IMG/VR virus record: IMGVR_UViG_3300045988_147264
Location: 32,001-96,000 of that record
Origin: a virus
Reading direction: 5' to 3' (one strand)
Length of the DNA: 64,000 nucleotides
Position 1 is the stretch's first letter. The number at the start of each line of letters is the position of its first letter. Below are positions 28,291-61,642 of this stretch, in pieces. The position numbers were made by a program, and so were the translations under genes. The notes beneath the pieces are model-generated. The model searched no databases. It was not told where the DNA came from and saw nothing but the letters and a program-made list of their open reading frames with translations.

Positions 28291-28362
28291 GTTGCGGGGG
28301 CAGGGATCGAACCTGCGGCCTCCAGATTATGAGCCTGGCGAGCTACCACTGCTCCACCCCAC
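28291..28362 (-). tRNA. tRNA-Met (anticodon CAT; initiator, elongator or Ile2 identity not resolved)
   Basis: Minus-strand cloverleaf folded by hand. Acceptor TGTGGGG/CCCCGCA, D-arm GAGC-AGTGGTA-GCTC, anticodon arm CCAGG-CTCATAA-TCTGG, T-arm GCAGG-TTCGATC-CCTGC. No encoded CCA. Confidence 0.8.
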
Positions 28363-31292: not shown

Positions 31293-32158
31293 CTGTAAAG
31301 CTTATACCTACACGTGCTAGTGTTGTAATACCTGTCAGGTATCTCAACCAAGTGATCCTCCGAGGAACCACATACAGGGCACCTCACAACGCCGTCATCA
31401 AAGGTCGCTGCGACATTCGGATGACTCTTCATCCACGGCCTCAGCTTAAGGTAAACCAACTCAAGAATCTTGACATCCTGCTGGTTGTACACAGCCATCT
31501 CCTCAAGAGCCTTTCCGTCACCGTTGAGACACTTCTCCCACAAGGAGAAATCAGTGCCTATCTTGTGAGGAAAACCAAAGTAACCGGCCAGGGCGTCAAG
31601 CTTGTTGCTCTTGAAGCCAAAGTATCTCTTCGCGACATCAAGGGTGTCTATGATATAATACGGAGAAGGACACTTCAGATCGTTCAATATAAACCTCGTG
31701 TTCATCCACGGCACGTCAGCCCTCTTGGCGTTATGCGCCACAACGACATCTGCCTCGTCAATAAGCTTCCACAATGACCGCATGATCCTCGAGTCATCCT
31801 GCCTAAGCGCCTCCTCGGAAGTCAGCACGTCACACATCTCCTCGCCGCCGTAAAGCCACTTTGCGGACCAGCACAACATGAACCAATCTTGCCTGACATG
31901 ATCCCACGCGATGTCCTGTTTCCATAAACCCCAGATATAACCCAACATAGGAGCTGTCTCGGTATCAAAGATCAACACCTTAGGCATCTTTTTGGGAGGA
32001 CCAACAACAACATTGTAACCACCGCTTGACCGCACAACATCCTTAGCCCCGCGTATGTCGTCAACACTGCATTTCAAATAACGGCTCAACTTGCCAGAAC
32101 CCATACCCAAAAGGTACGGCTTGCGCCTCATGCGCTCAACTATCTCATCAAAAACCAT
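31202..32158 (-). CDS. DnaQ-like DEDD 3'-5' exonuclease with C-terminal zinc ribbon
   Basis: Exo I LIFDTETAP, Exo II VVAHNAKRAD, Exo III YNQQDV. C-terminal CPVCG...CIDCG. Confidence 0.6.
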   Translation of the reverse strand: MVFDEIVERMRRKPYLLGMGSGKLSRYLKCSVDDIRGAKDVVRSSGGYNVVVGPPKKMPKVLIFDTETAPMLGYIWGLWKQDIAWDHVRQDWFMLCWSAKWLYGGEEMCDVLTSEEALRQDDSRIMRSLWKLIDEADVVVAHNAKRADVPWMNTRFILNDLKCPSPYYIIDTLDVAKRYFGFKSNKLDALAGYFGFPHKIGTDFSLWEKCLNGDGKALEEMAVYNQQDVKILELVYLKLRPWMKSHPNVAATFDDGVVRCPVCGSSEDHLVEIPDRYYNTSTCRYKLYRCIDCGAVVRGRENLNKDNKRVVPLTSPAR

Positions 32159-34815: not shown

Positions 34816-34935
34816 GGCCACATTGCCTGATTTGGGGTAACACAAGACACATTTTTAACAGAATATACATAAGTTAAGTATTGCGCCAATTATCAAATGT
34901 CTTGTGTTTTTATGGTTCGAGTCCATGTGTGGCCG
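34816..34935 (+). tRNA. tRNA-like gene with about 48-nt insertion (perfect acceptor and T-arm; interior non-canonical)
   Basis: Acceptor GGCCACA/TGTGGCC (7 bp), T-arm TATGG-TTCGAGT-CCATG. Interior has a 9-bp helix CACAAGACA/TGTCTTGTG enclosing 48 nt. GTCGTGAGAT motif 15 nt upstream. Confidence 0.4.
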
Positions 34936-35228: not shown

Positions 35229-35341
35229 GGTCATGTAGCTCAGTATGGTTCAGAGCGGCGGCGATGTTAGATTAGTTATGTCAAAAATATTCTGATTGAT
35301 ACAAAGCCCGCAGGTCGCTGGTTCAAATCCAGCCATGGCCA
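35229..35341 (+). tRNA. tRNA-like gene with about 40-nt insertion in the anticodon region
   Basis: Acceptor GGTCATG/CATGGCC, D-arm GCTC-AGTATGGTTCA-GAGC, T-arm GCTGG-TTCAAAT-CCAGC, variable AGGTC. Anticodon stem GCGGC/CCCGC (one C-C) flanks a 44-nt segment. Anticodon not assignable. GTCGTGAGAT 18 nt upstream. Confidence 0.45.
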
Positions 35342-36579: not shown

Positions 36580-36776
36580 GATCTCGTAGCTCAGTTGGCA
36601 GAGCACAATATTTCAGACAATAGTCCAAACCACAAAAACTTAAAGATATAAGGTTCATCCCTTACACTTCTCAGAAATGATGGAGGATAGTTTAATGAAA
36701 ACATTAAGTTTGCCTATATAAAAGCAGGTGTGGCAGGTTAATATTGAAGTCGCGGGTTCGATTCCCGTCGGGATCA
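36580..36776 (+). tRNA. tRNA gene interrupted by about 124-nt insertion in the anticodon loop (Lys-TTT, opal-suppressor TCA or other depending on splice site)
   Basis: 5' part: acceptor GATCTCG, canonical D-arm GCTC-AGTTGGCA-GAGC, anticodon 5' stem CAATA then TTTCAGA... 3' part: ...AA-TATTG (perfect partner of CAATA), variable AAGTC, T-arm GCGGG-TTCGATT-CCCGT, acceptor CGGGATC. Total 197 nt. Confidence 0.55.
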
Positions 36777-37040
36777 CACAATATATAAAAATAGTGGATA
36801 GGCCTGGAAGTAGCCATTCCTTAAAGAGTAATTGACCACCCGATCTATTAACGCTCCTTGGTAAAAGAGGAAAACGCAACTTAGTGGGATAAATGGAATA
36901 AGAAATGTAATGCACAAATCTGTATAACAGAGAGCATAAGATTCAATCTTTTACAGAGAAAACTGAAAAGGTAGTTGTATAACATCTTTGTAAGAGATAA
37001 ATTTATTTTTGGTGTAATAACACGCTATTTTTATTATTTT

Positions 37041-37113
37041 CTTCATGTGGCGAAGTGGCTAACGCGGCGGTCTGCAAAACCGTTATTCGTGGGTTCGAGT
37101 CCCACCATGGAGT
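37041..37113 (+). tRNA. tRNA-Cys (anticodon GCA)
   Basis: Acceptor CTTCATG/CATGGAG, D-arm GCG-AAGTGGCTAA-CGC, anticodon arm GCGGT-CTGCAAA-ACCGT, T-arm GTGGG-TTCGAGT-CCCAC. Confidence 0.6.
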
Positions 37114-37141
37114 CTAAGTTAAACAAATAAAGACAAACATC

Positions 37142-37411
37142 ATGGACGTAAAAACTTTTAACGAATTCTTTAACGAGCTCGCAAATGAGCAAAAGCGCAA
37201 CATTGATAATGTTGTTCATTACAGATATTCAAACAAGCCGGCAGTTGTAGCTACTGTAGATATGCCGAAAAATGAAAGAGTCCCAAGCTACAGGGTTGTT
37301 CGTTTCCTCGAATCCCAAGGAATCAAATTTGATTACCTTGCGTACGACAGAGAAAAATGCCGTTACTATGCTATGCTTAATAAAAATAGCTTTGAGAGAT
37401 GCGAACAGTAG
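37142..37411 (+). CDS. hypothetical early protein
   Basis: 89-aa ORF, first gene of the rightward module. Confidence 0.5.
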   Translation: MDVKTFNEFFNELANEQKRNIDNVVHYRYSNKPAVVATVDMPKNERVPSYRVVRFLESQGIKFDYLAYDREKCRYYAMLNKNSFERCEQ

Positions 37412-38037
37412 ACAATGCGGTAGACAATTTTGAACTGATTCGTGGATTCATGCGTTTTGAGTCTACGGATCAGTTTTATTTTCTACAGATTCTTCAACGG
37501 AAAAAGGATGGTCCTGGACCAAACGGCATTGTATATGGCACAAACAATAAAGCCAGAGCAATCAAGAGTTACTGCATAACGTCTGTCGAGATGTTGGATA
37601 GAATCTCTATTGAAGTCAAACATTTATGTAAATACTTCAATGCCAGGGCTTATTTTTATCCTGCGAGAAGATCTTTCAAAAAGGTTGCCATGAGGAACAT
37701 GGTGTTGCTTGCAAACAACATTTCTGAAGGTAATTACAACCACGCAAAGACTAATTACTGGTCGGCATGTGGTACCACTGAGATCGAGAAGTTATATTTA
37801 GTTGATGTGGATAATGACAAGTGCGACAAGGGTCGAGTGATTGACATAAACGTGGAAATTGAAACGAATGTAAGATCCGGCGCTTCTGTCGGCCAACGCA
37901 TAAAACTTTGTGTTCCCACAAAGAATGGCATTCATTTCATATGTTCGCCGTTTGACGTGGCTTCATTTAAGGAGAAGTATCCAGACATTGATGTACACAA
38001 AAGCAATCCTACAATATTATATTGTTTAAAAGATTAA
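37399..38037 (+). CDS. hypothetical protein
   Basis: 212-aa ORF, 13-nt overlap with the upstream gene. Confidence 0.5.
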   Translation: MRTVDNAVDNFELIRGFMRFESTDQFYFLQILQRKKDGPGPNGIVYGTNNKARAIKSYCITSVEMLDRISIEVKHLCKYFNARAYFYPARRSFKKVAMRNMVLLANNISEGNYNHAKTNYWSACGTTEIEKLYLVDVDNDKCDKGRVIDINVEIETNVRSGASVGQRIKLCVPTKNGIHFICSPFDVASFKEKYPDIDVHKSNPTILYCLKD

Positions 38038-38041
38038 CATT

Positions 38042-38245
38042 ATGGACATTAAATTTTCAAAGAAATCCATTAAGGACAATGGTTTCATTGTTCTTTATTG
38101 GGTACCAAACAACGAGATTGGGTTTAATCTATTTAAATCTCGGGAAGTCGCGCGAAAATTTGCCCTTGACAAGGTATCGGAAGGTTGCTCTGTAACTACA
38201 TTCACTAAAGACTGTGAACTACAGCCTAAAAGAAGGATTCTGTAA
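38042..38245 (+). CDS. hypothetical small protein
   Basis: 67-aa ORF, 4-nt spacing. Confidence 0.45.
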   Translation: MDIKFSKKSIKDNGFIVLYWVPNNEIGFNLFKSREVARKFALDKVSEGCSVTTFTKDCELQPKRRIL

Positions 38246-38248
38246 ATT

Positions 38249-38449
38249 ATGAAACCATACAGTAATGGCAAAGAATTCTTGCAAGACTCTATGAAACACG
38301 GTCCATACATTAAGGATGAAGTTCATGATTGTTGGAGATTTCCGACGAAAATCGAGAACAACGGTGTATGGCTTGACGATTATAGGTTTTGCAACTATAT
38401 CGCCTTGTCATCATATTGTTGGCAAGACGGTAAACGTTGTTGTCGATAA
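38249..38449 (+). CDS. hypothetical small Cys/Trp-rich protein
   Basis: 66 aa with CWRF...CNYIALSSYCWQDGKRCC. Confidence 0.45.
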   Translation: MKPYSNGKEFLQDSMKHGPYIKDEVHDCWRFPTKIENNGVWLDDYRFCNYIALSSYCWQDGKRCCR

Positions 38450-38690
38450 TAAATAATACCTGATTAAATGTTGGATGAGAGGCATCCACCATCTAAGGAG
38501 TTGATTCATTCCAGAGGGTTGAGTGTAATCTCAGGTTGGCTATACGTGTATAGCTGACTGTTCCGGCTAGGCTGGCGGAGTTAATAGCCGCACATACGGT
38601 GCCTTGAGCATCTGGTGATAAGCGGGGTGGATAATCATTGAATCATTTGGCGTAACAGCACATAATCAGGTATTTAAATTACGTATTAAT
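38450..38690 (+). ncRNA. candidate structured RNA / regulatory leader in an unusually GC-rich 240-nt intergenic region
   Basis: Hairpins TGGATG-AGAGG-CATCCA, GCTATAC-GT-GTATAGC, GCGG-AGTTAATA-GCCGC. GC is clearly above the flanking genes. Confidence 0.3.
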
Positions 38691-38695
38691 CAAAC

Positions 38696-38944
38696 ATGAA
38701 CACACTAGAACAAGGATTACTTGTACCCATCAGGTCAGAACTTATAGGGCACAATGCAATATTTTACTCTTTTAGTGGTAAGACAATTGCAGAAAACATT
38801 ACGGAAGTAGAGCTTGACGGTTATGGAAAATTCATTAGAATTACGGCCGATAAGATTGTCTATGCTATTCCCGGAACAAGAGCAACACTTGAAACGAATC
38901 AACGTCGTTTTCATGTTTCAAGCAAATATGAAGTAACAAAATAA
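38696..38944 (+). CDS. hypothetical small protein
   Basis: 82-aa ORF. Confidence 0.45.
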   Translation: MNTLEQGLLVPIRSELIGHNAIFYSFSGKTIAENITEVELDGYGKFIRITADKIVYAIPGTRATLETNQRRFHVSSKYEVTK

Positions 38945-38954
38945 TAAACAATAA

Positions 38955-39176
38955 ATGAAAAAGTTTATAATAAAACATAAAACAGACGGTTCCATAATTG
39001 GCACGCTTAACACAAAGAAACAAGCATCTGACTTTGTCATGAAATTGGTTGAATTAAATAAGATTGACAACATATTCAATGTGGTGTGTGAGGAACAAGA
39101 CATTGATGATTATCCCCTCACTTTCGGCGATGCTTATGCGAAGTTAGACATCACTGGAAGCGCTCTTGAACTGTAA
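38955..39176 (+). CDS. hypothetical small protein
   Basis: 73-aa ORF. Confidence 0.45.
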   Translation: MKKFIIKHKTDGSIIGTLNTKKQASDFVMKLVELNKIDNIFNVVCEEQDIDDYPLTFGDAYAKLDITGSALEL

Positions 39177-39360
39177 GGCGACAATAATCTTGCGAAATCC
39201 GCCGTGGCTTTCTATAAACTGGCTGTCATTGCAAGGGCTTGGAATAAAACTGATGGCTTTACGCCAGATCGTTCCAATATCGAACAGCGAATATATTATC
39301 CGTGGTTTGTCTATGAAGAACGAGTCAAAAGATTTTATTGAGGAACTTAAAAAGAAATAG
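39166..39360 (+). CDS. hypothetical small protein
   Basis: 64-aa ORF overlapping the upstream gene by 11 nt. Confidence 0.4.
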   Translation: MNCKATIILRNPPWLSINWLSLQGLGIKLMALRQIVPISNSEYIIRGLSMKNESKDFIEELKKK

Positions 39361-39362
39361 TT

Positions 39363-39536
39363 ATGTCTAAAGAAGAGTATGAAGATAATATTACAGCCGC
39401 ATTTAAAGCAGGCGCAAGATGGATGCTTGAAAAAGCCTGTGAATACATAAGGAGTCAATATCCAGTTCACTATCAAGAATGGTATGAGTTGGCTGAAAAA
39501 CGTGTTAAACAATTCAAGAAAGCAATGGAGGAATAA
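39363..39536 (+). CDS. hypothetical small protein (57 aa, below ORF-track cutoff)
   Basis: ATG at 39363 to TAA at 39534-39536: MSKEEYEDNITAAFKAGARWMLEKACEYIRSQYPVHYQEWYELAEKRVKQFKKAMEE. Fills an otherwise empty gap with tight spacing. Confidence 0.4.
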   Translation: MSKEEYEDNITAAFKAGARWMLEKACEYIRSQYPVHYQEWYELAEKRVKQFKKAMEE

Positions 39537-39538
39537 AC

Positions 39539-39712
39539 ATGACAGAAGAAGAGTTAATACAATTTCTAAAAAAGAATTTAGCCGTTGAGGTTTGTCATCC
39601 GGAACATAATGTTGGTTATTATCACATTGTAAAGGAGCCTGATGAACACAACATCACGGTAAAAATAAAACTATTAGGAAGGACAATTTGCGAAGGCACA
39701 TCTTGTTCTTAA
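39539..39712 (+). CDS. hypothetical small protein (57 aa, below ORF-track cutoff)
   Basis: ATG at 39539 to TAA at 39710-39712: MTEEELIQFLKKNLAVEVCHPEHNVGYYHIVKEPDEHNITVKIKLLGRTICEGTSCS. Confidence 0.4.
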   Translation: MTEEELIQFLKKNLAVEVCHPEHNVGYYHIVKEPDEHNITVKIKLLGRTICEGTSCS

Positions 39713-39733
39713 AACTTAAAGAAACAAAATAAT

Positions 39734-40303
39734 ATGGGATGTCATACGTGGTTTTATGTTTGTCTTCCTGACAAACAAGAAAAATGGCTCAATGAGTGGA
39801 AGCGCATTAAAATAAGAGCCGTAAACAGACACATCAAGAGCGTCAATGACCTTAGTACGTTGCAGTTGAAGAATCGCATTAAGGAATGGGCGAATATGTA
39901 TCCTAATAGTGGAATTGAAAACTTCACTGTTGAACAATTCAAGGAAGCTGTTCTTAAAACGGATCTTAGGATTAAAAAGATGTTCGACGACAATCTTGAT
40001 ATCTTGCATATAATGAAGAACTGTGACCAGGTTGATACATGTTGTATCTATGGCCTATATATGATTCATGACAACAAGATTTATCGCGAGATGAATGCAA
40101 GTTATCCTAACGGGAAGCCAGTTTTCCCTGATGGGTTACACGATCTATTTAGAGTCTATGATTATGAAGCCAATGCTTGCCTAAACATAGATGACTGCTA
40201 TACCTGCCTTAAAGATCACAACGTAACGTTGTCAAACTCGCAAGACAGGGAACTCAAATCATTCTGGAATAAATACCCTGACAGTATTATATGTTTTGGT
40301 TGA
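39734..40303 (+). CDS. hypothetical Cys-rich protein
   Basis: 189-aa ORF. Confidence 0.5.
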   Translation: MGCHTWFYVCLPDKQEKWLNEWKRIKIRAVNRHIKSVNDLSTLQLKNRIKEWANMYPNSGIENFTVEQFKEAVLKTDLRIKKMFDDNLDILHIMKNCDQVDTCCIYGLYMIHDNKIYREMNASYPNGKPVFPDGLHDLFRVYDYEANACLNIDDCYTCLKDHNVTLSNSQDRELKSFWNKYPDSIICFG

Positions 40304-40544
40304 TATGATAATGACAATCTACACAGTGATTTTCATCGCGATAGTGGTGATAATCTCTGCCAACATAGTCAAGAATCACGGCAAAGACTGTGTTAGTGTT
40401 GACATATTTGGCTATACAGTGACATCCGGCGAATTAGTTGTGATTGCAATGTTTTGGCCACTCGCAATAGTATATCTCATGCTCTGGCTTGTATGGAAAG
40501 CGTTCTGCGCAATCCTACAGGCTGTAGGTATCCTTCGTTCATAA
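40296..40544 (+). CDS. small integral membrane protein
   Basis: 82 aa with two hydrophobic helices (IYTVIFIAIVVIISANIV, VVIAMFWPLAIVYLMLWLVW). Confidence 0.5.
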   Translation: MVDMIMTIYTVIFIAIVVIISANIVKNHGKDCVSVDIFGYTVTSGELVVIAMFWPLAIVYLMLWLVWKAFCAILQAVGILRS

Positions 40545-40547
40545 TGT

Positions 40548-41345
40548 TTGCACAAGTCACAAATCGCTGTGTTTGTGGCTTATGTTTTAACTAAAAAAGA
40601 CATGCAGTATTATTTAAAAATCGATACGTGCTTCAAGCGCGTACAAGACAAAGATAATCCTTTGTTTAACTGTATTATTCCTGACGAATTCACTCGGGAT
40701 GAATTCGCTGTTCTACAGGATTGCAGATGGTTGGCTACTGAAAAAGTTGACGGTACAAACATGTCATATCATTTCAGATATGAAGCCAATCCGACGGGTA
40801 ATGAACCACCGCTCGTGGATATTCTTGAGATTCATGGTAAAACTCCGGACTCTAAGATACCTATTCCTTTAATCGAGAAGATGCAGTCTCTTGTTTCCAA
40901 GGAAGACTTTCATAGGTTGTTCCTTAGAGAAGATAAGCCTAACTCGCTTGTCGATGTTTGGATTTTTGGTGAAGGTTATGGCAAAAAGATTCAAAAGTTC
41001 GGCAATGATTACATCAGTAATGGCGTGAATTTCATTGTCTTTGACATCAAAATCGGCAATATTTGGCTCACAAGAGGATCCGTAGAGGAGATTTGTCGGG
41101 AGTTACGCCTTGACATTGTGCCTATCATTGATTATATGACCTTAAATCAAGGTATAAGACTTGTTGAAAAGGGTTTTAAGTCAAGGGTTGCAGAGAATGA
41201 AAACCTTAATGCCGAGGGACTTGTGCTGTCAGCGCCATGTATGATGCTTGACAGGCTCGGCAACAGGATTGTCACCAAGATTAAGACATGTGACTTCAAT
41301 CAGTTAAAAGCAAAACTCAAAAGTAATGGAACAGTTCTCGGTTAA
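40548..41345 (+). CDS. ATP-dependent RNA (or polynucleotide) ligase, nucleotidyltransferase superfamily
   Basis: Motif I ATEKVDGTNMSY (KxDG), motif III NFIVFDIKIG, motif IV AEGLVLSAP, motif V RIVTKIKT. 265 aa, the size of phage Rnl-type ligases. Confidence 0.6.
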   Translation: MHKSQIAVFVAYVLTKKDMQYYLKIDTCFKRVQDKDNPLFNCIIPDEFTRDEFAVLQDCRWLATEKVDGTNMSYHFRYEANPTGNEPPLVDILEIHGKTPDSKIPIPLIEKMQSLVSKEDFHRLFLREDKPNSLVDVWIFGEGYGKKIQKFGNDYISNGVNFIVFDIKIGNIWLTRGSVEEICRELRLDIVPIIDYMTLNQGIRLVEKGFKSRVAENENLNAEGLVLSAPCMMLDRLGNRIVTKIKTCDFNQLKAKLKSNGTVLG

Positions 41346-41372
41346 CAAATGGCTTAATAGTTACAATTTAAT

Positions 41373-41783
41373 GTGCAGGCTAATATGATTCTCACTGGAA
41401 TATCACATATGTATTGGATAACAAGGTTATCATTAATACATGACGCGTTTTTATTCGTTTTTATCATTGCTGCAACTGTGGCGTCCCTTACCGGAATAAT
41501 TGTTTTTTTATCGACTGGTGATGATAAAGATGACTATGCTTGTTTTAAGCGCGTAAAAAAGTGCTTTATTACAGCAATTGTAGCTGTTGTTCTTAGTGGT
41601 GTAGGATTGGTATTTGTTCCAAAAACAAATGAGGCTCTGCTCATTTATGGCGTAGGTACAACAATTGATTACGTTGACAACAACGAAACCATTAAACAAC
41701 TCCCGGATAAGGCTGTACAGGCACTTGACAAGTACCTAGACTTGCTTAACAAAGACAGTGAAAATAAAAATTCTCATAACTAA
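41373..41783 (+). CDS. membrane protein
   Basis: 136 aa. Hydrophobic helices LFVFIIAATVASLTGIIVFL and AIVAVVLSGVGLVFV. Confidence 0.5.
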   Translation: MQANMILTGISHMYWITRLSLIHDAFLFVFIIAATVASLTGIIVFLSTGDDKDDYACFKRVKKCFITAIVAVVLSGVGLVFVPKTNEALLIYGVGTTIDYVDNNETIKQLPDKAVQALDKYLDLLNKDSENKNSHN

Positions 41784-41784
41784 A

Positions 41785-42606
41785 ATGAATTTAATCAAAT
41801 CATCTGTTGAAGAATGGGTGCAAGAAAACTCGCTTCAAGGGGCTTACAAACAAATCGAGAAAGCCGCAAGAGTCTGCTATAAGTCAGATCTTGGAAAGAA
41901 TCCCGCTGAATTTGTTGACAAGCTCGTTTCTAATGGCCATATGGCTATGCTCGAACACGGCATTCTATATTTACGTATCGAGTTTAACCATTTACTCGAC
42001 CATACGGTACATAAAAGTGTCAATAAGTTGTTATCATCTCCTTACGTCAAATTCAAAACATTTGGCGTCAACGGAAAGCCAATAGAATGGCACATAACAG
42101 CCAACATGCGAGTGTTCTATGAACTTAATGTTCTTGATCTGCTACAATATGCTGTTACTCCTGACGACTCGTATGAGAAGGTCAGGTGTTTCCACTTTGT
42201 GCTGAACAGGGCGATAGCAAATGAGTTCGTTCGTCACAGAAAATTCAGTTTCGCCCAGGAGTCTACCAGATTCTGCAATTACAGCAAGGACAAGTTTGAC
42301 AATCAGGTAACTTTTGTTATATCTGATGAGGTTGAAAACTCTTCCTCAAAAGACCTGTTCAAACGAGCCATGGCTGATGCTGAAAGGCATTATCTCACGG
42401 CATTGAAAGATGGTCTTAAACCAGAAGAAGCGAGAGACATGTTGCCATTATCAACAAAGACAGAGCTTGTAATGACAGGATTTTTGTCAGATTGGCAGCA
42501 TTTTATCGATTTGCGTTCCATTGGCAGCACAGGAAGGCCGCATCCGGAAGCGAAAAAGCTGGCAGACCAAGTAAAAGAAATACTTTATGGATCTACGAAC
42601 ACTTAA
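41785..42606 (+). CDS. thyX: flavin-dependent thymidylate synthase ThyX
   Basis: ThyX signature FVRHRKFSFAQESTRF (RHRx7S). Start placed at ATG 41785 (MNLIKSS...) just after the upstream stop. The longer track ORF begins at 41758. Confidence 0.7.
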   Translation: MNLIKSSVEEWVQENSLQGAYKQIEKAARVCYKSDLGKNPAEFVDKLVSNGHMAMLEHGILYLRIEFNHLLDHTVHKSVNKLLSSPYVKFKTFGVNGKPIEWHITANMRVFYELNVLDLLQYAVTPDDSYEKVRCFHFVLNRAIANEFVRHRKFSFAQESTRFCNYSKDKFDNQVTFVISDEVENSSSKDLFKRAMADAERHYLTALKDGLKPEEARDMLPLSTKTELVMTGFLSDWQHFIDLRSIGSTGRPHPEAKKLADQVKEILYGSTNT

Positions 42607-42835
42607 GAAATACTTTGCTCGATGTAGAATCTCATATACTGTAGTTTGGACTCCTAATCAAGAAATGTATGTTTCATTACCAACGTGTTCTGACAGGAAG
42701 CCAATCTATCGATTAATTGTTATTGATAACGGGCTGGTTGTTATCGTTACTAACAAGATTGTCGTTTATAATCAAATAGAAGAAATCAAACAAATAAAGT
42801 TTTATGATTCTAAAGGTAAAGAAATTGCACAATGA
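42587..42835 (+). CDS. hypothetical small protein
   Basis: 82-aa ORF overlapping thyX end and dut start. Confidence 0.4.
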   Translation: MDLRTLKKYFARCRISYTVVWTPNQEMYVSLPTCSDRKPIYRLIVIDNGLVVIVTNKIVVYNQIEEIKQIKFYDSKGKEIAQ

Positions 42836-43229
42836 TGCTCAGTTGCCGTTCTATGCCACAAAAGGTTCAGTTGGAATGGATCTTACATGCGTGAGTGCCG
42901 AGTGGGATCGTGAACATAACGAGATTAAGTATGGCACTGGTCTTGCATTCGAGATTCCTCAAGGATATGGTGGATTCCTGTTTCCAAGAAGCTCTGTATG
43001 CAAGAAAACTCTTGACATGGCTAACTGCGTCGGCGTGATTGACTCTGATTACAGGGGAGAGGTTTCTGCTGTGTTCAGAATCACAAATCCAGCTGATGAA
43101 AAGGTATATGCTATTGGTGAAAGATGTTGCCAGATTGTAATCTTGCCGGTAGCTATATGCGAAATTGTTGAAGGCGATCTTAGCGAAACAGCAAGAGGCG
43201 CTCGTGGATATGGTTCAACAGGTAAATAA
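42804..43229 (+). CDS. dut: dUTP pyrophosphatase (dUTPase)
   Basis: Motifs GSVGMDL, FPRSS, VGVIDSDYRGE, ARGARGYGSTGK. Confidence 0.8.
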   Translation: MILKVKKLHNDAQLPFYATKGSVGMDLTCVSAEWDREHNEIKYGTGLAFEIPQGYGGFLFPRSSVCKKTLDMANCVGVIDSDYRGEVSAVFRITNPADEKVYAIGERCCQIVILPVAICEIVEGDLSETARGARGYGSTGK

Positions 43230-43481: not shown

Positions 43482-43555
43482 TCCCGTGTAATATACTTTG
43501 TAGCAACATTGTATATGAGATGGTATTATCGGTTCAACTCCGATCACGGGATCCA
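43482..43555 (+). ncRNA. 72-nt tRNA-like minihelix element with genome-encoded 3' CCA (no recognisable D or anticodon arms)
   Basis: Acceptor TCCCGTG/CACGGGA (7 bp perfect), T-arm ATCGG-TTCAACT-CCGAT (canonical loop), discriminator T then CCA. Positions 8-48 form one hairpin (ATATAC/GTATAT stem, 14-nt loop). Confidence 0.45.
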
Positions 43556-52753: not shown

Positions 52754-53849
52754 CAACCTTCTGAAAATGTATCCACGGCTTAAGCCGCGTATGTTATTTG
52801 GTCAGTCAAGAACAGTTTACAAATCAACTACCATAAGACTTGACGGTGAGGAAAAAGGAGCCATATGTAAAGACTCTAAATTCGGCGAAAAATGTTGTTT
52901 TGGCAACACGACTAAACAAAGATTTATTTCCGCAAAAATCTCTTATGATATCTTCTTTACGGACGATATTAGGTTTGTCGAACGCTTGATGCCAGTAACG
53001 CTGTTCACAAAGGACGAGATTGAATCATTCTTGAATTATCTTAAAAACGTGGTCGATTTTGAGTTTACTGTAGAATATGGCCAAGTAAAGAATTTTGATC
53101 TTTTCAAAAATGATGGTAATTTCGTTCATTATTTAGAAAATAGTTGTAAAGAAACCAAAATAGATTATCGTGAATTAACGGGTTTTCTCCTGCACGTTAC
53201 AATCGATGCCATAAGGCCTATTCATGCGTTCATACTTCAATGGATAAGGCAAATATATGACGGACGAGCTCAATTTTATACCGGCATAGTATATGAACTG
53301 AAGAAACGAACCGAGTTCAAGAATCTGTCTCTGTTTACCATAATGAGTCTTGTATATAGCTCATTACGGTTTAGTGAGGGCTCGACCGACATGTGTGTAT
53401 TTCCTACGGATATGTATGAAGGAAGGTTGTCTTTCCCAAAAATGAAAGACAGGTTCAGCGATATGAATAAAATGTTTAAAAGATTCGTCAATACAAGCAT
53501 TTATTCAAGCAAACGGTACGATCATGAAAAAGAAGTTCCAGCAGATCTCAAAGAGTATACTTATGGAGATTGTCTTGAATTCATAGACATGGTTTGGTGC
53601 AATCTTTGCAGAGACTTGTTCATTGAGAATCTGGAAGTGAAAATCAACGACTCTGATAGAATTTCAGTTTTTGGCGATTATCGTGAAATGAGTGATTTCA
53701 TTAATCGTTATGACGAAATTGTGGAATTGTTCGCCAGAATAGCGTCTTTAATTTTGTCCGGAAAGTGGAAACTTGACAAAGAGAGTCTCGATTGGAGAAT
53801 CGACACAAAGCGAATCATCAATGACACCTATAAATACTTGAGTGAATGA
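52737..53849 (+). CDS. hypothetical protein inside the ligase operon (start chosen at ATG 52737)
   Basis: The track ORF starts at 52689 inside the ATP-grasp gene. ATG 52737 (MKERYNNLLK...) gives a 17-nt overlap. 370 aa, no recognised motif. Confidence 0.45.
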   Translation: MKERYNNLLKMYPRLKPRMLFGQSRTVYKSTTIRLDGEEKGAICKDSKFGEKCCFGNTTKQRFISAKISYDIFFTDDIRFVERLMPVTLFTKDEIESFLNYLKNVVDFEFTVEYGQVKNFDLFKNDGNFVHYLENSCKETKIDYRELTGFLLHVTIDAIRPIHAFILQWIRQIYDGRAQFYTGIVYELKKRTEFKNLSLFTIMSLVYSSLRFSEGSTDMCVFPTDMYEGRLSFPKMKDRFSDMNKMFKRFVNTSIYSSKRYDHEKEVPADLKEYTYGDCLEFIDMVWCNLCRDLFIENLEVKINDSDRISVFGDYREMSDFINRYDEIVELFARIASLILSGKWKLDKESLDWRIDTKRIINDTYKYLSE

Positions 53850-54499
53850 TGAACAAAACAAGAAAAGTATACGTTGTTGGAATGGGCACCGGATATGCTC
53901 ATCCCATAAAGAACAAACAGTTGGTCAATACCATTCAAGAAGCGGACATTGTCCTTTTCACAGGTGGCGCTGACGTAGATCCATCAATCTATGGTAAGAA
54001 AGCCATAGAAGCAACATGGCCCAACCTTCGTAGAGATATCTATGAAAAGGAGTTCTATGAAGCCATGAGGCCAGACCAGTTGGCAATCGGTATTTGTCGC
54101 GGATTGCAGTTATTTTGTGCTCTTAATGGAGGCAATCTTGTGCAGGATACCACAAATCACGCTGGACCAGACCATACAGTGAAGATTCTCGAAACCGGAG
54201 ATACATTCATGGTTTCATCGCTGCATCATCAAATGGTCTATCCTTTCGATATGTCAAATAGAGACTATACCATTCTTGGCATATCAGAACACAACAGAAG
54301 TCTTTATTACGCTGGTGACGGTATTGATCCTGAGGTAATAAAGGACTTTGGTGAACCTGAAATCGTATTGTTTCACAAAGAGGGAAGGCCAGTCAGCTTC
54401 GGCATTCAGGGACATCCGGAAATGATGTCTCCAAACAGTCCTTTTGTGCAGTACGAAAACGAAATGATTGAAAAGTTGTTAAAACAAATCAAAGGCTAA
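53846..54499 (+). CDS. class I glutamine amidotransferase-like protein / peptidase C26-type thiol hydrolase
   Basis: Catalytic Cys in GICRGLQLF, His-Glu in GIQGHPE. 217 aa. ATGA overlap with the upstream gene. Confidence 0.65.
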   Translation: MMNKTRKVYVVGMGTGYAHPIKNKQLVNTIQEADIVLFTGGADVDPSIYGKKAIEATWPNLRRDIYEKEFYEAMRPDQLAIGICRGLQLFCALNGGNLVQDTTNHAGPDHTVKILETGDTFMVSSLHHQMVYPFDMSNRDYTILGISEHNRSLYYAGDGIDPEVIKDFGEPEIVLFHKEGRPVSFGIQGHPEMMSPNSPFVQYENEMIEKLLKQIKG

Positions 54500-54502
54500 C
54501 AA

Positions 54503-55372
54503 ATGATCAAAGAATTTACAGTCGGGGCAGACCCCGAGATGTTTATCATTAATGAGACAACCGGAGAGGTGGTCTCCTCGATTGGATTAATCCCTGGCGA
54601 GAAAGGTGACGCCTATCGCGCCGAAGACATGCCAGAGGGTTACGGCATTGAAACAGACAACATTCTTGCTGAATTCAATATCCCTCCTTGCAAAACCAAG
54701 GATGAGTTCATTAATGCCATGAACTACATGAAGGATTATATTCGTAAGTTCGTGAAGAATGTCAATCCTGAGTTGAATATCAAGTGCTCTGCCAGCGAAA
54801 TGGTCGGAAGCGATCAATTAAGGTCTCCTGAAGCCAAGATGTTCGGATGCTCTGTCGATTTCAATGCTTATACAGAAGACTCCAATCCTAAACCTTGCGG
54901 AGAAAGCACCAACCTCAGATCTGCCGGATGCCATATTCATCTTGGCTATGATCCGAAGAGTTACGAGTCAAGCATCGAATTGTTGAAACTCATGGATGTG
55001 TTTGTTGGCTTGCCATCAATACTTATCGACAAGGATGATCGTCGCCGCAGTCTTTACGGCAAAGCCGGTTGTTTCAGGCTTACGCCGTATGGCATTGAGT
55101 ATAGAGTGTTGTCGGCAAAGATGTATGACACCAACGATCTCATGTCGCTAGTCTGGGACGGTGTCATGCTTGCGATTGCTGCCTATAATAACAATTTCGA
55201 GTATAACGCCGGAGCAGAGATGGTTATTCAGGCCATCAATGAAAGCGATGAGAAACTCGCAAATGCTGTGCTTGAAGATGTGTTTGGAAGCATTTTCAAA
55301 AATTTCCCTGCAATGGCTGACCAAGCAAAATCGTTTATTACTGAATTAGGAACCATAAAGAATAAATTGTAA
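54503..55372 (+). CDS. glutamine-synthetase-fold amidoligase (Amidoligase_2-like), paralog 1
   Basis: Motifs YGIETDNILAEF, SAGCHIHLGYD, YGIEYRVLSA. Paralogous to 56774-58093. Confidence 0.55.
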   Translation: MIKEFTVGADPEMFIINETTGEVVSSIGLIPGEKGDAYRAEDMPEGYGIETDNILAEFNIPPCKTKDEFINAMNYMKDYIRKFVKNVNPELNIKCSASEMVGSDQLRSPEAKMFGCSVDFNAYTEDSNPKPCGESTNLRSAGCHIHLGYDPKSYESSIELLKLMDVFVGLPSILIDKDDRRRSLYGKAGCFRLTPYGIEYRVLSAKMYDTNDLMSLVWDGVMLAIAAYNNNFEYNAGAEMVIQAINESDEKLANAVLEDVFGSIFKNFPAMADQAKSFITELGTIKNKL

Positions 55373-56796
55373 TGTGTGGAATCTTTGGCTTTATAGGCCA
55401 ACGGCAGAAACCGTTTGACAAAAGAGCATTCGTTACCTTGGGTGTCGCAAATGACGCCCGAGGCGGCGATTCTTGCGGCATATTCATTGACGGACAGTAC
55501 GAATATGGTGTCGATAAGCTTAAGTTGTTCGGCGATTTCTGGTATCAATCAAAACTTATCAAAGAGACAAAAAGCGCTACAATCGCTCTTGGGCATGACA
55601 GAAAGGCTTCTGTCGGTGGAGTGAAGGCTGAGTTGGCTCAACCTGTCATCATTAATGGAGAAAACGGACCGGAGTTTGTCTTTATCCATAATGGTACAAT
55701 GGTGAATCATACCGCTCTCGCAAAGAAATATCTGCCAGATATGGATACCGCTCATATGAGCGACTCTCAAATCATGGCGCATATTTTCTATCGTCACGGA
55801 TTTGATTCCATTGAGGAATATATCGGAGCGGCTGTATTTGTCGCTGTCGATTATCGTTCCGGAAAACCTGTGTCGTATTTCTTCAAGGGAGAATCAAAAG
55901 AGTATAGTTATTCGACAAAGGCCACTGAAGAAAGACCATTGTTCTTCACGATGTCTCACCAGCAGGTCTATTTTTCTTCAATCTATTCTACGCTTGCTAC
56001 TCTATTTCCTGATAAGGCATTTGCCAAAAACATTTATTTTCCTAATGGGAATATACTTTATACAGTAAATCCTGATGGAGATTTTGCTGTTGTCAAGGAA
56101 TACGACAGGAGCAAGTGCTATCAGAAAGAATCGTATACGAGCGCCGCTTATAACTATTATGGATATAATCGAAATGTCGATTTTGATGACGAGGAGAGTT
56201 ATTACGATTACTACAGAGGCAAAAACAATAATAACACCCCAACAAACCTGTTGACGTCTGGTAACAATGGTAAGCTTACGTTTGATTCCAAGACGATGCT
56301 GTATTACGAAGGAGATGATGTCGCGCATGGGTTGTATTATGTTGTTGACAACGGCTCAATCGTGCCAGCAAGAACAGCCAATGCGTTTGAGGCGTTCTTC
56401 TTCAATGGCGTTCTCATTAAGAATGCAGATGCGTTATTCTTCTTGATAGAATTTATGGTGACAATGCAGTTGACTGAAGATAAGGTTTTCGAGAAATATG
56501 ACTCCCTTGTGAGGTACTTAAGTCCATTGCCGGCGGTTAGCCTTGGTGATGACGGTACTCCCACCTTTCATAAGTATGTCACGCCTACCGAATGTGAGCT
56601 GTTTAGCGGTACAATGTTTCCACTGTTTGCCGGTAGGTCAATTATGTGTCAAGCCGGTGCTGTATCGTCTTCAACGCTTATCGCCGATTCAGTAGGAGAG
56701 AACATCTATAAGAAATTTAGCGAAGAGCCTATCAATATGGAATTACTTGATGACTTTTTAGATTCAACCGTAAATGAAACTGAAAATAATAAATAA
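55372..56796 (+). CDS. class II (Ntn) glutamine amidotransferase fused to an uncharacterised 250-aa C-terminal domain
   Basis: N-terminus MCGIFGFIG with catalytic Cys2 after Met removal, plus FVFIHNGTMVNH. ATG overlaps the stop of the preceding gene. Confidence 0.6.
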   Translation: MCGIFGFIGQRQKPFDKRAFVTLGVANDARGGDSCGIFIDGQYEYGVDKLKLFGDFWYQSKLIKETKSATIALGHDRKASVGGVKAELAQPVIINGENGPEFVFIHNGTMVNHTALAKKYLPDMDTAHMSDSQIMAHIFYRHGFDSIEEYIGAAVFVAVDYRSGKPVSYFFKGESKEYSYSTKATEERPLFFTMSHQQVYFSSIYSTLATLFPDKAFAKNIYFPNGNILYTVNPDGDFAVVKEYDRSKCYQKESYTSAAYNYYGYNRNVDFDDEESYYDYYRGKNNNNTPTNLLTSGNNGKLTFDSKTMLYYEGDDVAHGLYYVVDNGSIVPARTANAFEAFFFNGVLIKNADALFFLIEFMVTMQLTEDKVFEKYDSLVRYLSPLPAVSLGDDGTPTFHKYVTPTECELFSGTMFPLFAGRSIMCQAGAVSSSTLIADSVGENIYKKFSEEPINMELLDDFLDSTVNETENNK

Positions 56797-58093
56797 TCTT
56801 TCCGAAGATTCAAGACAAGATCGTGATGGATATGTCAGAGGAATCTTGCAGGCCACAAAGAACTCCATTGTTGTAGGATGGGTTCCACTGTCTCCTCTTA
56901 ATGTGCTTATCTGTACGAAGCTGAGAATTCCTGGACTTTATGAATATGTCAATATGTCACGTGTTTATGGTCATTCATATGAAGAGCTTAAAGACGTATT
57001 GCATTTTGACAATTCGATAGGGCTTTACAGGTTCATATTTGAGTCTACTCCAGAAACAATTGCCATGGCTACTGCCGTCATGGGTAATGGTCAGTATCCA
57101 TATCTCATTGAAAGAGAGTATGAGGCATTGAATAATCTAGGTAGGTTCAATGATTCTCACATTGTCGAACAGCACAAGACATATACTCTTGGCGACAAGC
57201 TTAAATACACGTTTGGCATTGAGTTTGAGACATCCTGCGGTTACGTTCCTTGCGATAGGACATTCATAGATGGCCTTATTCCGTTAAGAGATGGAAGTAT
57301 TTCTGGAATAGAATACTCAACAATTGTTCTTAAAGGAAATGACGGATTGAATACACTTAAACAGTGTATGGATGACCTGACCAAATACACTATGTTTAAC
57401 AAGGAGTGCGCGTTACACATTCACCTTGGTGGGTTTCCGGTAAAACAGGAATATATCGCAGCATTGGCCGGCGTACAGAAGAAACTTGAGGATTCAAACT
57501 ATCTGTTTACTCTGCCTGAATGGTCATTTAACACAGAGCTTTATAAGTCTAACGGCAAAAGCTACTGCAAGAAGACACCGATATACGAAAGTTTCGATGA
57601 GTTATTCCACGGCGTGACTGGTAAAGATTTCAAGGGTTCATTGTCAGAACCACATCCAAGGGATCCCGAAAGAACTTCCAAGTGGAATATATCTTCCAGA
57701 TATTATGGACTCAATCTTGTCAATATGGTCTGCTATAAGACTCCAAAGACTGTTGAGTTCAGATTCCTCAGACCAACAGACAACTTCAAAAAGGTGTATA
57801 TTTGGCTTGCGATATTTAACGCGCAGCTGGAGTTCACCAAAATGCTTGTTGAAAAATACAAGAGAGCCATATCAGAGGATGCAAATGCTTCGTTCATGTT
57901 AGATTATATAAATGATCTTAATTTTGACCTGACAACCGTTTTGTCAAGTGTATATGAAGGAGACTTTCTTGATTGGCTTATTGACGGTCTGAAACTCATG
58001 AAGCGAGTTATTAGTGTTCAAAATGGAGCAAATGACCACTACGGATCACTTGTAAGTGTTGAAAACAAGATTCTTGGCACTGATGTACTTTAG
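56774..58093 (+). CDS. glutamine-synthetase-fold amidoligase (Amidoligase_2-like), paralog 2
   Basis: Motifs FGIEFETSCGY, CALHIHLGG, TVEFRFLRPT. 23-nt overlap with the upstream gene. Confidence 0.55.
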   Translation: MKLKIINNLSEDSRQDRDGYVRGILQATKNSIVVGWVPLSPLNVLICTKLRIPGLYEYVNMSRVYGHSYEELKDVLHFDNSIGLYRFIFESTPETIAMATAVMGNGQYPYLIEREYEALNNLGRFNDSHIVEQHKTYTLGDKLKYTFGIEFETSCGYVPCDRTFIDGLIPLRDGSISGIEYSTIVLKGNDGLNTLKQCMDDLTKYTMFNKECALHIHLGGFPVKQEYIAALAGVQKKLEDSNYLFTLPEWSFNTELYKSNGKSYCKKTPIYESFDELFHGVTGKDFKGSLSEPHPRDPERTSKWNISSRYYGLNLVNMVCYKTPKTVEFRFLRPTDNFKKVYIWLAIFNAQLEFTKMLVEKYKRAISEDANASFMLDYINDLNFDLTTVLSSVYEGDFLDWLIDGLKLMKRVISVQNGANDHYGSLVSVENKILGTDVL

Positions 58094-61386: not shown

Positions 61387-61642
61387 TGACCTTTCTTGTT
61401 ATTCAAGAAACGATAAGGCATATACACCTTCGTATTCAATAGGAAAAGACAAGGATACGCGTCATTATGAACTCGACAATCACGATGTCGGTGTAGCATA
61501 TTATGACGGAGAATTGTATTTTCTCAGGGCATACAACAGGAGATGGGTCATCGAATCCACGATCAAACAGGAACAGGCTATTCATATGTCACACGTTATG
61601 TCAAACATGTGTCAATGGTTAAAAACTAATGGACTACACTAA
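61337..61642 (+). CDS. hypothetical small protein
   Basis: 101-aa ORF. Alternative in-frame start at 61364. Confidence 0.4.
   Translation: MTEGIRRVLMKKRVIIDDLSCYSRNDKAYTPSYSIGKDKDTRHYELDNHDVGVAYYDGELYFLRAYNRRWVIESTIKQEQAIHMSHVMSNMCQWLKTNGLH

Follow-up and report, generated by a model that had tools for sequence, protein, structure and literature searches.

A conserved tRNA-like small-RNA gene, probably of tRNA-His descent, in one clade of gut crAss-like phages

The tRNA genes of phages are commonly attributed to codon supply or to the need to make good host tRNAs lost to immune nucleases. Other RNAs processed by tRNA enzymes do not decode, among them phage T4 species 1/2, the murine gammaherpesvirus vtRNAs, mascRNA, and a domain of tmRNA. 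The part of a tRNA that is read by RNase P, the 3' trimming enzymes, and the CCA-adding enzyme is the acceptor/T minihelix. Further non-decoding tRNA-like RNAs have been described in the YrlA domain (PMC4201824) and in plant-virus TLS-His (PMC8127992). Among the irregular tRNAs reported by Mukai et al., some carry histidine identity at the acceptor end, and those with G-1 are charged by histidyl-tRNA synthetase (HisRS), are unused in translation, and have been proposed to be regulatory (PMC5389517). D-armless and armless mitochondrial tRNAs decode with the help of co-evolved factors (PMC6158502, PMC12221289).

Here we describe a tRNA-like element found in a 64,000-nucleotide stretch of viral DNA (the window; positions 32,001 to 96,000 of IMG/VR record IMGVR_UViG_3300045988_147264). 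The setting is a very abundant group of gut phages, and the element was compared across relatives of the phage that carries it.

Architecture and setting of the element

The element occupies positions 43482-43555 of the window on the plus strand. It measures 71 nt to the discriminator and 74 nt including CCA (Table 1), and the length of 72 nt given by an earlier sequence-only reading has been corrected accordingly. The parts listed by that reading were recovered directly from the letters: a perfect 7-bp acceptor stem, a canonical T arm, a discriminator T at 43552 followed by CCA at 43553-43555, and an interval of 39 nt (43489-43527) between the acceptor 5' strand and the T arm, in which ATATAC and GTATAT enclose a 14-nt loop. 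With an energy of -21.4 kcal/mol (z = -2.49), equaled by 5 of 200 shuffled sequences, the most stable fold is made up of the acceptor stem, the central hairpin, and the T arm.

Table 1. Parts of the element and its flanking reading frames, in window coordinates
Feature	Position	Strand	Observation
Base -1 (A), eighth acceptor pair with base 73 (U, 43552)	43481	+	A:U in 8 variants, G:C in 2
Acceptor stem, 5' strand TCCCGTG	43482-43488	+	4/7 pairs with compensatory double changes; 100% of cells paired
Connector U8 A9	43489-43490	+	Invariant except for C8 in L082
Central hairpin	43491-43516	+	Stem ATATAC 43491-43496/GTATAT 43511-43516; apical 2-3 bp 43499-43500/43507-43508
Alternative 7-nt "anticodon loop" AUAUGAG	43513-43519	+	AUG at 43515-43517; closing stem 43508-43512/43520-43524
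Conserved G-rich segment GAGAUGGUAUU, interval between hairpin and T arm	43517-43527	+	7 invariant positions
T arm: stem ATCGG (43528-43532)/CCGAT (43540-43544), loop UUCAACU (TTCAACT, 43533-43539)	43528-43544	+	2/5 pairs compensatory; 100% paired
Acceptor stem, 3' strand CACGGGA	43545-43551	+	Pairing and covariation
Base 73 (U) and trailer CCA	43552-43555	+	CCA in window lineage only
Upstream orphan ORF, 78 aa	43237-43473	+	Anchor for finding relatives
Downstream hydrophobic ORF, 41 aa	43576-43701	+	Start 20 nt past the element

The 78-aa and 41-aa ORFs are 102 nt apart, and the element takes up most of that gap; all three lie on the plus strand, in a locus that runs RNA ligase, ThyX, dUTPase, 78-aa ORF, element, 41-aa ORF, and 83-aa ORF. 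The 78-aa ORF had no family match. When neighboring ORFs were scanned for RNA-binding or tRNA enzymes, none was found except the RNA ligase 2 kb upstream, and no candidate partner protein was evident among them. No signal stood out in promoter and terminator scans nearby; a test for an intrinsic terminator at the element reported none, and the trailer is A-rich and not a U tract.

The RNA ligase (40548-41345, plus strand; Pfam PF09414, PHROG 548) is found in most relatives and is absent from L075; it may have a role in tRNA repair or in the joining of interrupted tRNAs. Compared with a 95%-identical relative (L001), the window has about 2.7 kb of extra DNA within about 37100-43200, an early-region indel between tRNA-Cys and the 78-aa ORF. 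Elsewhere in the window, a cluster at 53846-58093 (plus strand) encodes Peptidase_C26/GATase, a phiEco32-like COOH-NH2 ligase, GATase_6, and Amidoligase_2 and is probably a peptide- or base-modification module.

Standard tRNA finders overlook genes of this type. At default settings, ARAGORN found seven other tRNAs in the window and did not call the element; Rfam at gathering thresholds found eight tRNAs, with the element again absent. In a local scan, the Rfam tRNA model (RF00005) scored the element at 25.4 bits against a gathering score of 29 (E = 0.0026 in a 281-nt search space) and aligned only the acceptor stem, U8-A9, and the T arm; the element was not in the list of a whole-window E-value scan. 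No Rfam match to tmRNA, YrlA, or other tRNA-like families was obtained at E <= 10. Matches to the T-loop motif GGTTCRANYCC number 11 in the window, where 0.29 would be expected, and all 11 lie inside tRNAs or tRNA-like elements. A weak model match at 61487-61559 was set aside as not tRNA-like on reading. Judged from the window alone, the case for the element is just borderline, and the evidence that we regard as decisive is the set of compensatory changes in both stems across ten variants, described below.

At least three further tRNA genes of this phage are aberrant and contain short insertions. A UCA-anticodon tRNA (36580-36777, plus strand), of the opal-suppressor type and labeled SeC by ARAGORN, has a 124-nt insertion after the anticodon loop, a length too short for a group I intron; its counterpart in L005, called in ARAGORN intron mode with an insertion of roughly 505 nt, is labeled tRNA-Lys(ttt), a doubtful call. 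A tRNA-Asn(GTT)-like gene (35229-35341, plus strand) with a 38-nt insertion on the 3' side of the anticodon arm scores 50 bits with the Rfam tRNA model and is called by ARAGORN in intron mode only. At 34816-34935 (plus strand), where gene blocks switch from the minus to the plus strand, lies a tRNA-like element that no tool called, with acceptor strands GGCCACA/TGTGGCC, the T arm TATGGTTCGAGTCCATG, and an 8-bp stem, ACAAGACA/TGTCTTGT, around about 50 nt. L005 probably has a copy of that element: a T arm at its position 928 comes with TGTGGCC as its 3' acceptor strand. In more than one respect, tRNA biology in this clade is out of the ordinary.

Conservation and covariation within one phage clade

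The phage has a crAss-like layout, and its ThyX is 40-44% identical to the ThyX of Suoliviridae and Steigviridae. Relatives were found through homologues of the 78-aa ORF, dUTPase, and ThyX, on contigs from gut metagenomes, and ten distinct versions of the element were recovered from related crAss-like phages, all at the same locus. As judged from these sequences, what this small group of gut crAss-like phages carries is a conserved RNA gene of 72-75 bases. The clade is isolated, with dUTPase identity of at least 77% within it and at most 61% outside and ThyX identity of at least 80% within and at most 48% outside.

Neither the element nor the order of genes around it is present in the nearest outsiders. 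No homologue was found at the DNA level among GenBank phages by megablast and blastn, and tblastn with the 78-aa ORF found none outside the clade. Exact and degenerate pattern scans of IMG/VR returned just two close relatives, the other acceptor-pattern matches being ordinary tRNAs; a scan of one metagenome with the core plus T-arm pattern matched solely the variable arms of ordinary tRNA-Ser genes, which we take as chance. A covariance model of the family found nothing beside the dUTPase genes of 23 other viral loci, nothing in cr114_1 and crAss001, and nothing in the next-nearest ThyX/dUTPase relatives (L083 and L077). The homologues in related phages that the sequence-only reading had asked about are present inside the clade, in ten versions, and none was found beyond it. 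In two unrelated records, L030 and L032 (IMG/VR 3300009510_000017 and 3300047994_000066), a CUA amber-suppressor-type tRNA with an encoded CCA has an acceptor stem, TCCCGTG/CACGGGA, identical to that of the element, probably by coincidence.

One lineage, represented by two samples, lacks the element (L080, 1176-1204; L081, 432-460). There, the 74-nt element is replaced by CGTGG, leaving a spacer of 29 nt; the flanking ORFs are intact, the 41-aa ORF being retained. Because both deeper clades have the element, the loss is secondary, and because one lineage has deleted it, the element is dispensable and accessory. The deletion shows that any function it may have is conditional.

Covariation was assessed on an alignment of ten related sequences, all from one narrow family. 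The acceptor/T pairing on which the sequence-only reading depended is conserved throughout, with 100% of cells paired in the ten variants. Double changes were found at 4 of the 7 pairs of the acceptor helix (5 of 8 when the pair between base -1 and base 73 is counted) and at 2 of the 5 pairs of the T stem; over 13 helix positions there were at least seven compensatory double substitutions and no broken pair. When the 3' partners were slid by one to three columns as a control, 18-47% of cells paired and almost no double changes appeared. The T loop of the relatives reads UUCGACU or UUCGAAU. A U.G pair occurs in the T stem of L050, and U.G and G.U pairs occur in the hairpin; such pairs point to an RNA on the plus strand rather than a DNA cruciform.

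The interior of the element has changed slowly as well. Between the window and clade B, the central 40 nt are identical at 29-30 of 40 positions (72-75%), against 45-47% at the 4-fold degenerate sites of four flanking genes, which served as a neutral yardstick, and the 5' leader is unalignable between the clades. Core positions G36, A37, U40, G41, U43, A44, and U47 are invariant; L082 departs at two otherwise invariant positions, with C8 and A42. We take these patterns of substitution to show that the element is an RNA under selection on its acceptor helix and T arm and that the sequence of its 40-nt core is constrained too.

Core fold, trailer, and tRNA-His ancestry

In both runs, the RNAalifold consensus of the ten variants comprised the acceptor helix, the central hairpin, and the T arm, and not an anticodon stem, in agreement with the fold drawn from the window alone. 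In the hairpin (10-15/30-35), pair 11:34 is U-A, U.G, or C-G. The earlier statement that the interval cannot form a cloverleaf was too strong: ARAGORN draws a weak one at an 80% threshold or, at the default threshold, in mitochondrial mode. Under relaxed settings the call is tRNA-His, the anticodon being AUG for the window and GUG for close relatives. The anticodon stem so drawn (A-U, U.G, U.G, G.U, U-A) closes the loop AU-AUG-AG in the window, where two of four D-stem pairs form, and the general 7-nt loop, AU-NNN-AK, retains U33 and A37. This stem (27-31/39-43) can pair in all variants, with three G.U pairs, and its pair 28:42 is U.G, C-G, or U-A. The D stem is paired in 39% of cells, with 10:25 and 12:23 never forming; L050 alone has a 3-bp D stem, in another register. 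The triplet at the anticodon position is AUG, GUG, or GCG over the ten variants and so is not conserved. Nine variants were folded under both models, and in these the hairpin was favored over the anticodon stem by 4-9 kcal/mol.

Other arrangements of the core can be paired. The relatives allow a mini-hairpin (37-40/44-47; 4 bp with a GGU loop) in which pair 39:45 is A-U, G-C, or G.U; it is compatible with the central hairpin, and the two together would form a four-way junction with unusual arms. A variable-arm-like helix (30-33/42-45) and a pseudoknot (27-29/41-43) are pairable as well. Because nearly all core changes are transitions that keep wobble pairing, the variation at hand does not separate these alternative folds. 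The most stable and best-supported model is one in which the D and anticodon arms are replaced by one long hairpin and a short G-rich segment after it.

The sequence-only reading had made the encoded CCA the defining feature of the element. None of the eight recognizable tRNAs in the window has CCA after the discriminator, as that reading noted, and yet the relatives of the element do not keep it: the trailer is CCA in the window lineage, CUA in L050, and CAA in clade B, so that CCA is specific to one lineage. The eight recognizable tRNA genes end in N73-C-A/T-A or T, mostly CAA (3' flanks, for example, at 28291, 35495, 35626, 35716, 36444, and 37114), and every tRNA or tRNA-like gene of the window has C at position 74. 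The CCA of the element is best read as a one-base variant of the N73-C-N-A trailer common to the phage tRNA genes, and through this shared trailer its 3' maturation is tied to theirs. The N-C-N-A trailer is a phage-wide signature of tRNA-type genes.

Base -1 pairs with base 73 in every variant, as A:U in eight and G:C in two (L047 and L042), and is never unpaired. The pairing holds across five unrelated leaders, the eight A:U variants themselves having three different leaders, and RNAalifold includes it, giving an 8-bp acceptor helix. An eighth acceptor pair at -1:73 is a hallmark of tRNA-His. The loop takes the form AUGUGAK, with AUGUGAU in L050; that of Escherichia coli tRNA-His is UUGUGAU. 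Four of the 10 aligned variants have GUG as their triplet, as does a truncated copy in L079. No variant combines G-1:C73 with a GUG anticodon, the bacterial tRNA-His identity set; G-1:C73 is found solely in the two variants with a GCG triplet, and the window has A-1:U73 with AUG. The L050 version scores 31.2 bits with the Rfam tRNA model, above the threshold of 29. Because of the -1:73 pair and the AUGUGAK loop, the element has most probably descended from a tRNA-His gene. The idea of an RNA with no tRNA ancestry is contradicted by these two features together with U8, U33, A37, and the above-threshold score of L050.

Candidate role, alternatives, and related systems

Our preferred reading, to which we give a probability of about 45%, is that the element is a tRNA-His-derived small-RNA gene, processed by tRNA enzymes and probably yielding a non-decoding mimic, in one isolated crAss-like clade. 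The tRNA-mimic noncoding RNA of the sequence-only reading is retained here as to its selected RNA, its acceptor/T minihelix, and its noncanonical body, and abandoned as to its definition by CCA and its want of tRNA ancestry. Of the roles put forward in that reading, anticodon-nuclease decoy and primer would be no more than candidates, and punctuation alone is hard to square with a core whose unpaired sequence is conserved. The element would be cotranscribed with the surrounding plus-strand genes; RNase P would cut its 5' end at -1 or +1, and the 3' tRNA-processing pathway would trim it, CCA then being added. Excision and CCA tailing are expected because the minihelix is the part that those enzymes read, and we infer that the element is processed like a tRNA. 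The product would be a stable RNA of about 72-76 nt, with an mRNA severed between the 78-aa and 41-aa ORFs as a by-product.

The mature RNA is most likely non-decoding, since its would-be anticodon varies and a cloverleaf is disfavored. Its most likely role would be that of a tRNA mimic acting through its His-like acceptor end and conserved core, with a possible partner in histidyl-tRNA synthetase or in another enzyme or toxin that recognizes tRNA acceptor ends, for which it would be a ligand or a substrate. It may possibly serve as a decoy for defense enzymes that target tRNA acceptor ends. The boldest version, a dedicated phage tRNA mimic with a histidine-type end that, once matured by RNase P and CCA addition, would be charged without being used by the ribosome or would act as a sponge for a host enzyme or immune toxin directed at acceptor ends, we consider quite unlikely; if true, it would be a bacterial-virus counterpart of plant-virus tRNA-like structures and an RNA-based counter-defense or regulator.

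Four rival explanations were weighed, in order of likelihood an odd working tRNA, a processing signal, a pseudogene, and a DNA-level site. The first, which is unlikely, holds that the element is a structurally odd tRNA that decodes, adopting in vivo a cloverleaf with a reduced D arm with the help of modifications and tertiary contacts. It would read as His(GUG) in most of clade A, as an A34 variant in the window, and as Arg(GCG) or a His-charged CGY reader in clade B. The relaxed ARAGORN call of tRNA-His(AUG/GUG) with its 7-nt loop, U33, and A37 speaks for such a tRNA, as do an anticodon stem that is 100% pairable in all variants, the passage of L050, with its 3-bp D stem, beyond the Rfam gathering score (31.2 bits), the -1:73 pair typical of tRNA-His, a length and trailer like those of other tRNAs, and the lack of any other His or Arg tRNA in the window. 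It is countered by the D stem, paired in only 39% of cells overall, by the three G.U pairs of an anticodon stem that is 4-9 kcal/mol less stable than the hairpin, and by the missing call at default thresholds. The triplet moreover shifts between AUG, GUG, and GCG among close relatives without matching identity changes, G-1:C73 going with GCG. The window would have an A34 His anticodon, which to our knowledge is not found in natural tRNAs. Known bacterial tRNAs are all canonical cloverleaves (PMC11551756).

The second rival is "tRNA punctuation" only, in which RNase P and 3' cuts in a polycistronic early transcript would set mRNA ends or stability and the excised RNA would have no role. The position of the element fits this, in an intergenic gap of co-oriented ORFs with its 3' end 20 nt before the next start codon and no promoter or terminator signal standing out nearby, and the minihelix is its best-conserved structural part. 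However, the unpaired core is conserved well above the neutral level, which would be needless for a mere cleavage signal, and in the lineage without the element the downstream ORFs persist with the A-rich leader intact. We rate this explanation as rather unlikely.

Stem covariation together with a constrained core disfavors both a minihelix-only signal and a neutral pseudogene. A decaying tRNA pseudogene with no present function would account for the below-threshold score in the window, for the changes to C8 and A42 in L082, and for the outright deletion in L080 and L081. It is nonetheless improbable in view of at least seven compensatory double substitutions with no broken pair over 13 helix positions in ten variants and a core whose identity is 72-75%, against about 46% at neutral sites. 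The element is not decaying freely, and the ordinary decayed pseudogene that the sequence-only reading had kept in view is an improbable description of it.

The last rival, a DNA-level site, be it an attachment site that includes a piece of a host tRNA gene, a cruciform, or an origin, has in its favor that tRNA 3' halves commonly serve as integration sites, and it is highly improbable given that both acceptor strands are present, that G.U pairs function at the RNA level only, and that no integrase was seen among the neighbors scanned. An attachment site was sought in 185,579 bacterial genomes and rejected; there were eight unrelated matches, and no Bacteroidota tRNA had the T arm with the 3' acceptor strand. 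Fragments of tRNA genes have been described (PMC9897764).

Returning to the non-decoding mimic that we favor, what has been retained are the parts that processing enzymes and synthetases read, together with a selected core that is not tRNA-like, which would point to a non-decoding use of the tRNA scaffold. The element is a compact test object, with about 74 nt, a natural deletion variant, and ten natural sequence variants. It could be used to address whether phage tRNA mimics counter defenses directed at acceptor ends or tune translation.

With canonical phage tRNAs (RF00005), the element shares the 7-bp acceptor stem, a 5-bp T stem with G53-C61, the UUCRANU loop, U8, a length of 71-72 nt, a plus-strand position in the early region, and the N73-C-N-A trailer. 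It differs in that its D stem is unsupported, its anticodon stem is a weak, GU-rich alternative, its triplet varies, and it draws 25.4 bits against 29 and no default ARAGORN call. Its resemblance to tRNA-His lies in the complementary, covarying -1:73 pair, the AUGUGAK loop, and GUG in 4 of 10 variants, but the pair is A:U and not G:C in 8 of 10, the triplet is AUG in the window and GCG in clade B, and the body is not a cloverleaf. Like the D-armless and armless mitochondrial tRNAs, it has a D arm that is missing or replaced, and it is ARAGORN's mitochondrial mode that draws it; we know of no armless-tRNA decoding system with co-evolved factors in bacteria.

The irregular and allo-tRNA-like sequences of Mukai et al. 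are likewise noncanonical tRNA-like genes, some of them in phages (PMC5389517). They are, however, cloverleaves with 8/4 or 9/3 acceptor/T arms and long variable arms, whereas the element is 7/5 (+1) with a remodeled core, and no sequence relationship was found. The tmRNA, YrlA, and T4 RNAs are all much longer, and the G3:U70 pair of tmRNA is absent from the element, whose pair 3:70 is C-G or U-A; YrlA, for which a Ro-binding module would be diagnostic, gave no model match at E <= 10 either. What the element would share with the non-decoding tRNA-like RNAs is an acceptor/T mimicry that suffices for RNase P, 3' processing, and CCA addition; it differs from them in having no sequence or Rfam match and in residing in a double-stranded DNA phage of Bacteroidota. 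By analogy, and independently of any sequence or model match, the element resembles those tRNA-like RNAs, already known as a class, that make use of the enzymes of tRNA maturation.
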